A stretch of DNA of 25,054 nucleotides, from sequence record NZ_CP007673.1; one strand, 5' to 3'. This DNA comes from a plasmid. Shown here in pieces: positions 217 through 23,169 of this stretch. The position numbers were made by a program, and so were the translations under genes. The notes beneath the pieces were generated by a model, which did no database searches, was not told the DNA's origin, and was given only the letters and a program-made list of their open reading frames with translations. Every line of letters starts with the position of its first letter. Position 1 is the first letter of the stretch.

Positions 217-344
217 TTTTGAAATTGAAATTTAAGGAATGTCAGTCATAATTAAAAAAGGAAAACATTTTTATGACACCTTGAAATGAATTGATAAGAA
301 TAGAAAAGTTTACAAAAGGCAATATGGAATATATACTAAAAGTA

Positions 345-406
345 ACAAGAATTTCGTTTGTAAACGCACCAAACCCCGAACTATTGGCCGTAGTTCGGGG
401 TTTTTT
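345..406 (+). ncRNA. Candidate antisense RNA (RNAII/SprA1AS-like) of type I toxin-antitoxin locus 1
   Basis: There is a promoter with -35 TTTACA at 309-314, a 17-nt spacer and -10 TATACT at 332-337. Positions 344-370 (aacaagaatttcgtttgtaaacgcacc) are a direct repeat of 509-535 and are therefore complementary in trans to the toxin start-codon region. A 10-bp-stem intrinsic terminator with a T-run lies at 374-406 and could serve both strands. Confidence 0.4.
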
Positions 407-430
407 GGTGAATTGACTTAGTCGTCTATG

Positions 431-526
431 CTATTTTTTATCGCGTTTATGGAGCCAATAACCAAATAACGTGACCAGACAACCACTAATTACTGTTGTC
501 ATGATGTGAACAAGAATTTCATTCAT
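431..526 (-). CDS. Fst/PepA1-family type I toxin, 31 aa (MNEILVHIMTTVISGCLVTLFGYWLHKRDKK). It is below the 60-aa cutoff of the ORF track.
   Basis: The RBS GAGGAGGTG lies 6 nt upstream of ATG on the minus strand. The product is a single TM helix with a KR-rich C-terminus and resembles Fst/PepA1 (VISGC...YWL). An extended -10 promoter (TGTTATAAT, minus strand) lies near 578-586, and the 5' UTR contains the palindrome GACGTCAAcTTGACGTC. Confidence 0.6.
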   Translation of the reverse strand: MNEILVHIMTTVISGCLVTLFGYWLHKRDKK

Positions 527-874
527 AAATCGCACCTCCTCTCTACGTCAAGTTGACGTCTGAGAGATAGACGACTCTAACATTATAACAAATCTCTCCT
601 TCCATAAAATAACATGAAAGCCAAAAAGTATTTTTATGTACTAAAGACAAAAAACTACAAAAGATGGGATAAATGATGTTTGGCAATCAAAGATAAGAAG
701 CTACAAAATATGTTATCAAAGAAGGCTATCAAGATATTCATTTTCTCAATTTTGGATTGGCGAAAAGAAATCATAACTGAATAAAGATACAAAATAGTTG
801 TTGATGAAAAAATAATGAAAACACGTCATTTAGGGAAATGTATAAAAGATGCATACCCGATATCGTTGATAAAA

Positions 875-918: not shown

Positions 919-1014
919 TTAACATAATGTTTCAATATCAGATATTGGATACCTAACTTTTTTTATATATAAATCTTGGTTACATTTTGGACATTTCAGT
1001 GGACCTGTTTTCAT
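919..1014 (-). CDS. Small CxxC (zinc-ribbon-like) protein, 31 aa (MKTGPLKCPKCNQDLYIKKVRYPISDIETLC)
   Basis: The strong RBS AAAGGAGGAG lies just upstream of ATG on the minus strand, and the terminator at 875-912 follows immediately. The ORF is below the track cutoff. Confidence 0.3.
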   Translation of the reverse strand: MKTGPLKCPKCNQDLYIKKVRYPISDIETLC

Positions 1015-1117: not shown

Positions 1118-1888
1118 TTAGCTACCAAACAAACGACTCCAAAACCCCTTTTTAGGTGTTTCTACTTCCCTGTCCTCAGGTCCACTCTCTATTTCTTCAG
1201 ATAGTTTATCATCTCTCTTTAATACGTCTTCGTTTGCACTGTCATCCTTTTTCGCTTTAGTTATGCCCTTATGATTTAATTCTGCTTCTATTGGTTGTAT
1301 TTTCTTTTGTTGTTGGTTACTATTTTGATATTCTTCAGTAAAAGTTGCTTCTTGCGGATTAATGCTTTGTCTATCATTAGTCGCTGTATCAAAAGAGTAA
1401 TTAAGCTGTCTTTCTTCTTCTAATTGGTTTTCTAGTTTTTGAATCTTTTTATTACTTTCTAAAGCTAATATTTGTTGATTCTCCAACAGTTTATTTAATG
1501 TATTAACATTGCTATTTTGTTGATCTAGTTGTTTAGTTAAATTCTCAATATATTTTTCATCATTTTTAGCTCTAGTTTCAAAGATTTCTATTTGCTTTTC
1601 TAATTCATTTACTTTTGTTTTTAATGACTCAAAACCATTTGAATTATTGTATATATGCTTTTCAAACTCTGCAGTATTTTCATTAAATCTTTCTTTTTTT
1701 ATTGATTCTTTATTTTGCATTGTCCTTTCTTTCTTAGTGATCTTTTCTATAATTTTTAAACAATCATTATCATTAATATAATTAATTCCATTTTCTTTTT
1801 TAAAAGATATATTTAAGTTTTTAGCATTATTAACAATAGTTTGTTTAGTTACATTCAATTCATCAGCAACCATTTTAATAGTTTTCAT
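1118..1888 (-). CDS. par: pSK1 Par-like plasmid partition protein (DUF536) with an N-terminal HTH and a central coiled coil
   Basis: The N-terminus MKTIKMVADELNVTKQTIVNNAKNL is an HTH, followed by a long heptad, charged coiled-coil region and a disordered acidic C-terminus. It is divergent from the RepA_N rep, as in pSK1-family plasmids. The start was chosen at the ATG at 1888 with RBS AAGGA (the track ORF extends to 1933). Confidence 0.7.
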   Translation of the reverse strand: MKTIKMVADELNVTKQTIVNNAKNLNISFKKENGINYINDNDCLKIIEKITKKERTMQNKESIKKERFNENTAEFEKHIYNNSNGFESLKTKVNELEKQIEIFETRAKNDEKYIENLTKQLDQQNSNVNTLNKLLENQQILALESNKKIQKLENQLEEERQLNYSFDTATNDRQSINPQEATFTEEYQNSNQQQKKIQPIEAELNHKGITKAKKDDSANEDVLKRDDKLSEEIESGPEDREVETPKKGFWSRLFGS

Positions 1889-1899
1889 AACATTCATCC

Positions 1900-2051
1900 T
1901 TAGGTACATAAATTGGTACCTAAATTTTACCACCTAACAAATATTTTTTCATCTTTCGACATCTAAATTTACTACCTATTTCACTACTTTAGTACCTAAT
2001 TAGTCACTTATAGAAGGTTTTAACGGCTAATTAGGTACTAAAGTAGTGAAT
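1900..2051. promoter_or_regulatory. Candidate par centromere/operator: degenerate TAC(C/T)ACCTA(A/T) and GGTACCTAA repeats plus a 22-bp inverted repeat
   Basis: The repeats ggtacataaa, ggtacctaaa, taccacctaa, tactacctat and gtacctaatt lie between par and rep. A perfect inverted repeat cactactttagtacctaattag (1982-2003) / ctaattaggtactaaagtagtg (2028-2049) lies immediately upstream of par. Confidence 0.45.
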
Positions 2052-14160: not shown

Positions 14161-14287
14161 AAAAACGAAGTTATATAACATAAGACGACTTATCGGAAGT
14201 AGATATGCTTGTATATTCACAGATGGTATAATAATAGAGTCGCCTATCTCTCAGGCGTCAATTGACGAAGAGAGGAGGTGCATTACT

Positions 14288-14380
14288 TTGCTAATCATTT
14301 TCGTTCACATCATAGCACCAGTCATCAGTGGCTGTGCTGTTGCGTATTATACTTATTGGCTTAGTAAACGCAACAAATAA
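14288..14380 (+). CDS. PepA1/SprA1-like (Fst-family) type I toxin, 30 aa (MLIIFVHIIAPVISGCAVAYYTYWLSKRNK)
   Basis: RBS GGAGGTG lies 7 nt upstream of the TTG start. The peptide is nearly identical in pattern to S. aureus PepA1 (..FVHIIAPVISGC...YWLS.RN.K). An extended -10 promoter TGgTATAAT lies at 14224-14232. The ORF is below the track cutoff. Confidence 0.6.
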   Translation: MLIIFVHIIAPVISGCAVAYYTYWLSKRNK

Positions 14381-14407
14381 TTAATAGGCGACTTTATAAG
14401 CCAGCAT

Positions 14408-14473
14408 CGAAAAAATCCCCACACTACTGCAATAGTGTGGGGATTGGTGCATTAATTGTTAATCATTTTCGTT
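14408..14473 (-). ncRNA. Candidate antisense RNA (SprA1AS-like) of TA locus 2
   Basis: The minus-strand promoter has -35 TTGCAT (complement of 14504-14509) and an extended -10 TGTTATAAT (complement of 14480-14488). Its 5' region is the complement of 14458-14473, which is a direct repeat of 14291-14304 (taatcattttcgtt) and so is complementary to the toxin start region in trans. A 13-bp-stem terminator lies at 14414-14445, with a T-run on the minus strand. Confidence 0.4.
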
Positions 14474-14561
14474 ATATAAATTATAACACTGGTTAGTAGA
14501 GAAATGCAAAAACTACTGTTTGCGACAGAAAACTATGGAGGGTTACTGTGGTTGTTGAGCT

Positions 14562-21867: not shown

Positions 21868-23169
21868 ATGAAAAAATTCAAATTATTTTTAGATTTTAGT
21901 ACTTTACTATTAATTTCAGGGCTATTATTTTTATTTTTCTTCAAAGAAAGTGAAGAAATTATACCTGAAAGTTCCAATATTTTAACAATCTCTAATTGGG
22001 ATAAATCTAACAGTAAATCAAAAGTGTTAGATGCCATTGAATCAGGCGCCAAAAATCAAAATATACAAATAATTAGGTCCGTTAAAGATTTTGATAATAA
22101 ACAAGAATTTTTTGTTTTCAACTCAAAACGAAATAATTCTGACCTTATACGTAATAAAACATCACTTTTAACTCCATCAGATTTATTAAACAGAGAGATA
22201 AAAGGAAAGTATTATATTATTGGCGAACATTTCAATGTGGAAGAGCTTACGAGTGAATTAAAAAAAGCTGGTTTAACATCTGAAGTTGAATACATAAATA
22301 GAAACATATTATTTTTTGAATTAGTCATAGATAATGATTTATTAGTGCCTTTCATATTCTTAGGAGTATTATATCTTTTGTATTACTTATATGACAGAGG
22401 ACATCATTTAAAATTTTATGCTGTTCAAAAGCTACATGGCTTTTCAACTACACGCATTATTTTTCATAATATTCATCTAAAAATCATCTATTGGCTAATA
22501 CTTACCTCCATTTTCTTTATTGCTAATATATTAATCATTCATATAGCCAATTTAGAATTGGATTTCTTAATGTTTGTTCGTAGGTTTATCGTGTTGCTTT
22601 TTGTTTTTGCTTGTATTACTACATTGTTGTGGCTGATTTCGTATAGTCTTCTTTTGAAGTTAAATATTCCATTAACCTTAAAAGGGAAAAAAGGATATAA
22701 GTTTTCAATATTTATGGGTACCTTCACCAAATGTACCATGGTTCTAATACTATCTTTTTTACTTGCACAAAATTTAAATGCTTATACGAAGTTAAAAAAT
22801 ATATATGACTCTGAAAAAATCTGGCAAAAGCTAGAGAATTACTATACGTTAGAGATTTCTCCTAATATTAGAAACTTAGAAGAAAAACAAATTTTAGAAA
22901 CTAATGTATACAACTTAATTAAGAAAAGCGAACAACTTGGAGGATTGCTTTTAAAGAATAATAATATAGCCAATCCCGATAAAAATAATTACATTCCTGA
23001 AAATGGCAATGTCTTTTTTATCAATAACAATTTTCTGAATTTCTATAAAAATATAAATCCTGATTTTAAAATGATTGCCAATCATTCGGATAAAATAAAC
23101 GTGTTTATTCCTCCAAGGTTACAATCTCAAAAATCTGAAATTCAAAAAAAATCACCAAGGATGGATTGA
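21868..23169 (+). CDS. Bacteriocin-associated integral membrane protein (DUF1430-like), N-terminal 433-aa segment. It is interrupted by a frameshift.
   Basis: RBS AGAGG precedes the start. The segment has an N-terminal TM, a large extracytoplasmic domain and then TM helices. The frame ends just after the A8 run at 23144-23151. Confidence 0.6.
   Translation: MKKFKLFLDFSTLLLISGLLFLFFFKESEEIIPESSNILTISNWDKSNSKSKVLDAIESGAKNQNIQIIRSVKDFDNKQEFFVFNSKRNNSDLIRNKTSLLTPSDLLNREIKGKYYIIGEHFNVEELTSELKKAGLTSEVEYINRNILFFELVIDNDLLVPFIFLGVLYLLYYLYDRGHHLKFYAVQKLHGFSTTRIIFHNIHLKIIYWLILTSIFFIANILIIHIANLELDFLMFVRRFIVLLFVFACITTLLWLISYSLLLKLNIPLTLKGKKGYKFSIFMGTFTKCTMVLILSFLLAQNLNAYTKLKNIYDSEKIWQKLENYYTLEISPNIRNLEEKQILETNVYNLIKKSEQLGGLLLKNNNIANPDKNNYIPENGNVFFINNNFLNFYKNINPDFKMIANHSDKINVFIPPRLQSQKSEIQKKSPRMD

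Follow-up and report, generated by a model that had tools for sequence, protein, structure and literature searches.

Does the locus at positions 300-610 of a staphylococcal plasmid sequence encode a complete type I toxin-antitoxin (TA) module, and what would such a module do for the plasmid? The window analysed is a stretch of 25,054 nucleotides (nt) of sequence record NZ_CP007673.1. An earlier note, made from its letters, had proposed a locus of the Fst/PepA1 type there, with a small hydrophobic peptide on one strand and a short antisense RNA converging on it from the other. We find that the locus is very probably a par(pAD1)-type type I TA module of the Fst family, in which the antisense RNA would block translation of the toxin and whose role would be post-segregational killing (PSK).

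The toxin gene, the convergent RNA and their signals

The features of the locus are located in the window as follows.

431-526, minus strand: toxin coding sequence (CDS) of 31 amino acids (aa), start ATG at 526-524, stop TAG at 433-431, product MNEILVHIMTTVISGCLVTLFGYWLHKRDKK
535-539, minus strand: Shine-Dalgarno (SD) sequence GGAGG, 8 nt upstream of the ATG, predicted to be partly sequestered
582-590, minus strand: toxin promoter, an extended -10 TGTTATAAT that lacks a recognisable -35
366-576, minus strand: predicted toxin mRNA of about 210 nt, running 576 to 366, the RNA I analogue
567-576, minus strand: 5′ arm of the upstream (5′-3′ long-range) helix, at the extreme 5′ end of the toxin mRNA
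420-429, minus strand: 3′ arm of the upstream helix, between stop codon and terminator
509-536, minus strand: direct-repeat copy 1, the antitoxin target, with the last two G of the SD, the spacer, AUG and codons 2-6
309-337, plus strand: promoter of the antisense (antitoxin) RNA, -35 TTTACA at 309-314, 17-nt spacer, -10 TATACT at 332-337
344-407, plus strand: predicted antitoxin RNA of about 63-64 nt, the RNA II / SprA1AS analogue, a 5′ targeting domain followed by the terminator hairpin
344-370, plus strand: direct-repeat copy 2, which forms the antitoxin RNA's 5′ targeting domain and is complementary to the region where toxin translation is initiated
371-406, both strands: bidirectional intrinsic terminator common to both RNAs, arms 371-383 and 391-403, loop 384-390

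The hydrophobic 31-aa peptide is encoded on the minus strand as had been claimed, and a curated hidden Markov model assigns it by its sequence to the Fst family of toxins: NCBIfam NF033608 (type_I_tox_Fst, Fst family toxin) matches over profile positions 1-28 of 28 with 57.2 bits, against a cut-off of 26. A phmmer search of solved structures returned PepA1 of Staphylococcus aureus (PDB 4B19) as the sole match (E = 1.1e-6, 15 of 28 aligned residues identical). Fst/Ldr toxins are small peptides with one hydrophobic helix, a conserved tryptophan and then charged residues (Fozo 2010; PMC2887945); this signature is present here, residues 4-23 being hydrophobic and followed by W24 and then LHKRDKK. 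The helix carries T11-V-I-S-G15-C16 (T-x3-G-C), which fits the staphylococcal version of the P/D/S/T-x3-G motif, where Cys follows Gly (PMC7472228). From these family members we infer that the peptide is toxic. The strong ribosome-binding site ascribed to the gene corresponds to the GGAGG read at 539-535. A longer, 34-aa form of the ORF (open reading frame) with a GTG start was rejected because its GTG falls within the SD and the start chosen by PGAP is the ATG. The gene had also been described as invisible to an ORF track, which is true for length cut-offs above 34 aa and not otherwise.

The locus had been called unannotated, and this was wrong: RefSeq plasmids annotate exactly this CDS as ‘type I toxin-antitoxin system Fst family toxin’ (e.g. 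WP_001002796.1 in NC_017345), and an Fst toxin annotation is found on 59 of 59 ORF-overlapping rows among the matches listed. According to PMC4885055, Fst-like type I TA loci on staphylococcal plasmids (VRSAp, pSK1, pN315, pMW2 and others) were first reported in 2009-2010; it cites Weaver et al. 2009 (Microbiology 155:2930), Kwong, Jensen & Firth 2010 (Microbiology 156:975) and Jensen et al. 2010 (Plasmid 64:135). In PMC8545097 both pMW2 and pN315 appear under ‘Type I, Fst family’. The window locus is the same element, with no difference of substance, and the module is an already known, ordinary plasmid element that is routinely annotated. The antisense RNA gene was absent from the feature tables examined, which come from PLSDB and carry no RNA genes. 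Reading the letters by themselves can recover the full type I TA architecture, including the small RNA gene that standard annotation omits.

On the antisense side, the claimed promoter TTTACA-17-TATACT is present at 309-337 (+), with 10 of 12 consensus matches in our promoter scan and a transcript start predicted about 7 nt past the -10. The convergent RNA had been given as 60 nt long; a short RNA ending at the terminator is indeed predicted, but with a length of about 63-64 nt. It folds with -21.7 kcal/mol into a hairpin limited to its 3′ half, and its nt 1-27 have a mean probability of being unpaired of 0.70. The common bidirectional terminator also stood, with its coordinates corrected from 374-406 to 371-406: the 13-nt arms are 100% complementary, a T-run occupies 401-406 on the plus strand, and runs of A and T flank the element. 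The extended -10 promoter claimed for the toxin was found as TGTTATAAT at 590-582 (-).

For comparison we assembled 16 diverged loci together with the two Fst loci of the window (locus 1, treated here, and locus 2, described below), all oriented alike; the set was drawn from plasmids of S. aureus, S. epidermidis, S. haemolyticus, S. capitis, S. gallinarum and Mammaliicoccus sciuri. Every locus has a common layout: extended -10, 5′ helix arm, SD, ORF, 3′ helix arm, terminator, second repeat copy and facing promoter. The TGn extended -10 of the toxin promoter was found in 17 of 17 loci examined. Antisense promoters fall into two classes, TTTACA-17-TATACT in locus 1, the pN315-type loci (L002 and L003 in our numbering) and L004, and TTGCAT with an extended -10 (TGTTATAAT) in locus 2 and most others; L007 and L016 belong to neither. 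In each class the antisense RNA is predicted to start at the first base of the repeat.

Pairing between the two RNAs and the fold of the toxin mRNA

The 27-nt direct repeat that had been described (344-370 versus 509-535) exists and is complementary to the start-codon region, although its extended form reaches 536 (344-370 versus 509-536) and includes one 1-nt indel. Its core, 344-364 versus 509-529, is 21 nt long, gapless and 86% identical, and each of the three mismatches is a transition, so that an RNA duplex would have a G:U wobble there. Searching the window with the 21-mer and up to 3 mismatches found these two sites only, and 100 shuffles gave no match. Unlike pAD1, which has two separate repeats, DRa and DRb, the window locus has one contiguous repeat of 27-28 nt with a 1-nt bulge.

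The energies agree with the trans-complementary antisense RNA that had been described. The predicted 5′ duplex has -33.5 kcal/mol, compared with -13.7 ± 2.4 kcal/mol for 1000 shuffled antisense 5′ domains, and after payment of the mRNA opening cost the net pairing amounts to -20.4 kcal/mol. Nested co-folding of both full RNAs gave the trivial terminator-terminator duplex only. Since the 5′ repeat and terminator pairings cross topologically, nested co-folding cannot hold both interactions, and the 5′ interaction was therefore computed separately with the opening cost included.

Across 13 diverged staphylococcal loci the repeat sequence diverges strongly between loci, yet its two copies match within each locus. 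We calculated duplex energies for every combination of antisense 5′ domain and toxin initiation region in these loci (a 13 × 13 matrix). Cognate duplexes range from -30.5 to -38.9 kcal/mol (mean -34.0), against a non-cognate mean of -15.8 kcal/mol, and the best partner is always the cognate one or one with an identical target. Such covariation between two separate RNAs is difficult to account for unless their pairing is functional.

The toxin mRNA is predicted to be highly structured, with a minimum free energy of -71 kcal/mol. A feature beyond the earlier note is a perfect 10-nt inverted repeat, 420-429 / 567-576 (100% complementary), which forms the upstream helix. Around the SD, G539 closes a CUCUC/GAGAG helix and G536 and G535 pair with CACAUC in codons 7-8; the five SD bases have predicted probabilities of being unpaired of 0.01, 0.81, 0.93, 0.32 and 0.21, the two central ones being mostly unpaired.

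We aligned 14 distinct toxin mRNAs and derived a consensus fold by RNAalifold. It contains 54 pairs, with standard pairs in 96.9% of cells and changes on both sides in 16 pairs; none of 500 shuffles scored as high, and sliding the partners by 1-3 columns left 34-49% paired. This points to conserved, covarying pairing within the message. The upstream helix (9 pairs in the family) is 98.4% paired with 2 compensatory pairs, and the terminator (13 pairs) is 100% paired with 4. The CUCUC/GAGAG helix with its apical hairpin abuts the SD and has 3 compensatory pairs, including CUUCC/GGAAG in S. gallinarum. The GAGGUG/CACAUC helix, which covers part of the SD, is uninformative because it shows no compensatory change and lies within conserved codons; two further consensus hairpins fall inside the CDS. 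The distance from the end of the -10 hexamer to the upstream-helix arm (RRGTCG) is exactly 4 nt in 17 of 17 loci. Given this fixed distance, the toxin transcript should begin at the helix, the arrangement reported to protect pAD1 RNA I (PMC7472228).

Transcripts of the pN315 orthologue and the identity of the antitoxin RNA

Expression data are available for the orthologue on pN315 (L018), located at 23071-23166 (-). It shares 93% DNA identity with the window locus and differs by one amino-acid change, V12A; the two loci agree fully in the antisense promoter hexamers, in the spacing of these and in the first 41 nt of the antisense RNA. Beaume et al. 2010 (PMC2873960) mapped plasmid transcripts by RNA sequencing (RNA-seq) with a stated precision of about 20 nt, and their Table S1 gives Teg5pl and Teg9pl without a toxin-antitoxin comment. 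Set beside our predictions for pN315, three entries read:

Teg9pl, 22973 to 23027, plus strand, 54 nt: predicted 22983 to 23045, locus-1 antisense RNA
Teg5pl, 23202 to 23049, minus strand, 153 nt: predicted about 23215 to 23006, locus-1 toxin mRNA
Teg8pl, 5831 to 5768, minus strand, 63 nt: predicted 5826 to 5763, locus-2 antisense RNA

The start of Teg9pl lies within about 10 nt of the predicted one. The earlier note had held that a lack of transcripts from either promoter would speak against the module; in the pN315 orthologue, the closest relative studied, transcripts are found on both strands, Teg9pl (+) and Teg5pl (-).

These transcripts bear on whether the locus could be a decayed remnant, with an ORF or RNAs that have lost expression or activity and a repeat left over from a duplication. 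Decay does occur in the family: a locus-1-type variant in CP141471.1 (L003), with changes at 357-428 of the locus, has TGG replaced by TAG (a stop at W24), which leaves a 23-aa product, and has lost 1 nt of the terminator stem. The expression evidence, moreover, comes from the pN315 orthologue and not from the window's own plasmid. Against a remnant, the ORF and all signals are intact in the window, and blastn against a plasmid collection found the segment 200-750 to be 100% identical in at least 25 plasmids among the matches listed; at 99% identity or above it occurs in 50 or more S. aureus plasmids (51 records). The repeat copies co-vary, with pairing kept through wobble-preserving changes, and the orthologue is transcribed from both strands. 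We regard decay of this locus as extremely improbable.

The 23-aa product of CP141471.1 has a counterpart in the literature. A truncated pN315-type peptide of 23 aa is listed as a ‘hit’ (‘Fst1 hit’) from intracellular-expression studies in PMC12199084, and the two are identical; that paper assigns the peptide to Enterococcus faecalis, while the sequence is staphylococcal.

The identity of the antitoxin RNA is best considered together with locus 2, whose features are:

14220-14500: second Fst-type module, toxin on the plus strand at 14288-14380, MLIIFVHIIAPVISGCAVAYYTYWLSKRNK, NF033608 58.2 bits
about 14410-14446: terminator of the second module
about 14474 to 14409, minus strand: predicted antisense RNA of the second module

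Rfam RF01797 (fstAT, ‘Fst antitoxin sRNA’) would make the antitoxin a longer, fully antisense RNA opposite the 3′ half of the toxin CDS. The model aligns at 386-483 (+) of locus 1 with 49.5 bits and at 14331-14431 (-) of locus 2 with 88.5 bits, above the gathering score of 72, and a transcript from the promoter at 309-337 that ran through the terminator would be such a longer antisense RNA. At both loci, however, the matches begin in the terminator loop and extend, in antisense orientation, into the final third of the toxin CDS, overlapping the predicted antisense RNA of about 64 nt only in its 3′ terminator arm. No promoter precedes the match in locus 1, and the hairpin with six U is a strong terminator in the plus direction. 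The helices of the model mirror those of the toxin mRNA on the opposite strand, and the 54- and 63-nt RNAs seen by RNA-seq in pN315 fit repeat-plus-terminator and not the RF01797 span. A longer antitoxin RNA is thus very unlikely in our view, and the short repeat-plus-terminator RNA is preferred. Because its span shares only the terminator arm with the predicted RNA, its helices mirror the toxin mRNA and Teg8pl fits repeat-plus-terminator, the RF01797 model seems to be shifted against the real antisense RNA, whose coordinates should not be taken from it. The antisense RNA genes of these common resistance-plasmid modules could instead be annotated by rule, as a repeat plus terminator convergent to an Fst CDS.

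The two modules of the window are predicted not to cross-talk. Cross pairs between locus 1 and locus 2 give -10.5 and -11.7 kcal/mol, compared with -30.8 and -35.1 kcal/mol for the cognate pairs; the net values are -3.9 and -7.0 against -23.3 and -20.4 kcal/mol. The prediction is relevant to plasmid-curing or anti-plasmid strategies aimed at antitoxin RNAs. Locus 1 combines a toxin of the T-x3-GC type with a TTTACA/TATACT antisense promoter and with repeat and terminator-loop sequences of its own, and the toxin of locus 2 has the PepA1-like P-x3-GC motif. We tentatively suggest, with some doubt, that locus 1 could represent a distinct specificity class orthogonal to locus 2, making two non-cross-reacting addiction modules, and that antisense ‘addresses’ of this kind could act in exclusion or competition between plasmids of staphylococci. 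A second copy of locus 1 arising from circular wrap-around was considered and rejected, as the window contains a single match.

Proposed mechanism, role and plasmid setting

In the mechanism we propose, a toxin mRNA of about 210 nt (576 to 366, -) would encode a 31-aa membrane peptide. The 10-bp helix would lock the 5′ end of the mRNA to the segment just past the stop codon and, by analogy with pAD1 RNA I, stabilise the message, whose ribosome-binding site would be partly paired. The small RNA converging on it (about 63 nt, 344 to 407, +) would end at the same terminator. First contact might be made through the complementary terminator loops, as in pAD1 par and SprA1/SprA1AS (PMC7472228, PMC4885055). 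The open 5′ 27 nt of the antisense RNA would pair with the toxin mRNA from the last SD Gs through the AUG to codon 6 and so block initiation, and the two RNAs would form a stable, translationally silent complex like that of the same two systems. As long as the plasmid is present, the short antisense RNA would be continually resupplied. After plasmid loss, if pAD1 par and SprA1/SprA1AS are a guide, the less stable antisense RNA would decay before the toxin mRNA; the stable mRNA could then be translated and the plasmid-free cell inhibited. The relative stabilities of the two RNAs and the plasmid-stabilising role of this copy are what we infer from these relatives.

The par(pAD1)/SprA1-SprA1AS architecture proposed in the earlier note is borne out by the convergent RNAs, the common terminator and the complementarity through the repeat, together with the covariation in 13 loci and the pN315 transcripts on both strands. 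In par of E. faecalis pAD1 (RNA I / RNA II), a toxin mRNA and an RNA of about 65 nt likewise converge on a common bidirectional terminator. Owing to direct DNA repeats, the 5′ regions of the two are complementary to each other across the translation initiation region; the 5′ end of the mRNA is sequestered in an upstream helix, and the SD is surrounded by intramolecular structure (PMC7472228). The window toxin differs from pAD1 Fst in its staphylococcal T-x3-G-C motif, its Cys and a tail that is basic, not acidic; the phmmer search of solved chains gave no match to the pAD1 Fst chain at E ≤ 10, the peptides being too diverged.

The nearest solved relative of the window toxin, PepA1, belongs to SprA1/SprA1AS of the S. 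aureus pathogenicity island nuSa-beta. There, too, an RNA of about 60 nt overlaps with the toxin mRNA's 3′ end and acts through a non-overlapping 5′ domain on the ribosome-binding site and start (PMC4885055). SprA1 is chromosomal and the window locus plasmid-borne; PepA1 has the motif P-x3-G-C, as does locus 2, where locus 1 has T instead of P, and the SprA1 repeat and terminator sequences are unrelated in detail to those of the window locus. Fst-Sm/srSm of Streptococcus mutans resembles the locus in having a toxin mRNA of about 200 nt and an antisense RNA of about 70 nt that converge, with direct repeats mediating repression; its toxicity and antitoxin activity were shown experimentally (PMC3543317). 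It differs in being chromosomal, from another genus and without close sequence similarity to the window locus.

A number of observations weigh against a PSK module of this type. For this exact peptide and RNA, toxicity and stabilisation are extrapolated from family members, and the order of the binding steps is taken from pAD1. An hmmscan search of the whole Pfam-A library (E ≤ 10) gave no family for the 31-aa or the 34-aa form; in view of the matches in NCBIfam and PDB, this reflects limited sensitivity of Pfam for this clade and does not speak against homology. The terminator scan of the window reported no site at the locus and so missed the 371-406 hairpin, presumably owing to a maximal stem that absorbs the first Ts of the run, and in the toxin (-) direction the terminator tail is only UUUGGUG. 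The toxin promoter lacks a good -35 and was for this reason missed by the consensus promoter scan. We judge the missed promoter and the missed terminator to be limits of the scan definitions, since other sequence and family comparisons show both elements directly. At 386-483 (+) the RF01797 score is below the gathering score, and the matched segment is not the predicted antisense RNA. The reported 3′ end of Teg5pl falls about 43 nt short of the predicted one. Finally, the nonsense codon of CP141471.1 means that the module can be lost without loss of the plasmid.

The same module might also serve another role, in stress or persistence, in defence against phage or in plasmid competition; the antisense RNA would then adjust the dose of toxin and not act as an addiction antidote. 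Many Fst-family loci are of obscure function, and over-expression phenotypes vary between members (PMC7472228). Fst-type type I TA systems occur on 62 of 189 plasmids of methicillin-resistant S. aureus, 50 of the 62 carrying two copies (PMC10135026), and the window's two copies, predicted not to cross-pair, would be redundant for simple addiction; the natural nonsense variant fits a non-addiction role as well. On the other hand, the locus is plasmid-borne and stands beside replication and partition genes, as is classic for the par stability determinant of pAD1; for plasmid members of the family the canonical PSK role has been described (PMC7472228), and the sequence holds no pointer to a sensor or other output. 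We consider a different role unlikely and retain PSK as the probable function.

The window represents a pMW2-like S. aureus plasmid with blaZ, cadD and a lactococcin-972-type bacteriocin cluster, and is 99.9% identical to several 20.4-kilobase plasmids. A sensitive search returned 1,590 plasmid records with homologous loci; Staphylococcus accounts for 1,584. Next to the locus, Pfam DUF536 matches, with 26.6 bits (cut-off 20.7), a 271-aa ORF at 1118-1933 (-) that has an N-terminal helix-turn-helix-like region. We take the DUF536 protein to resemble the pSK1 Par partition protein. A RepA_N initiator is annotated by RefSeq slightly beyond the DUF536 gene, and with these two neighbours the locus therefore sits in the plasmid maintenance backbone. 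For the TCH60 plasmid, the gene table of PLSDB does not include the 271-aa ORF.

The stretch from the Fst locus to the DUF536 gene contains another 31-aa ORF, MKTGPLKCPKCNQDLYIKKVRYPISDIETLC, at 919-1014 (-), with AGGAGG 7 nt upstream. Its Pfam matches are weak, sub-threshold and zinc-ribbon-like only, and hairpins flank it at about 878-912 and 1077-1105.

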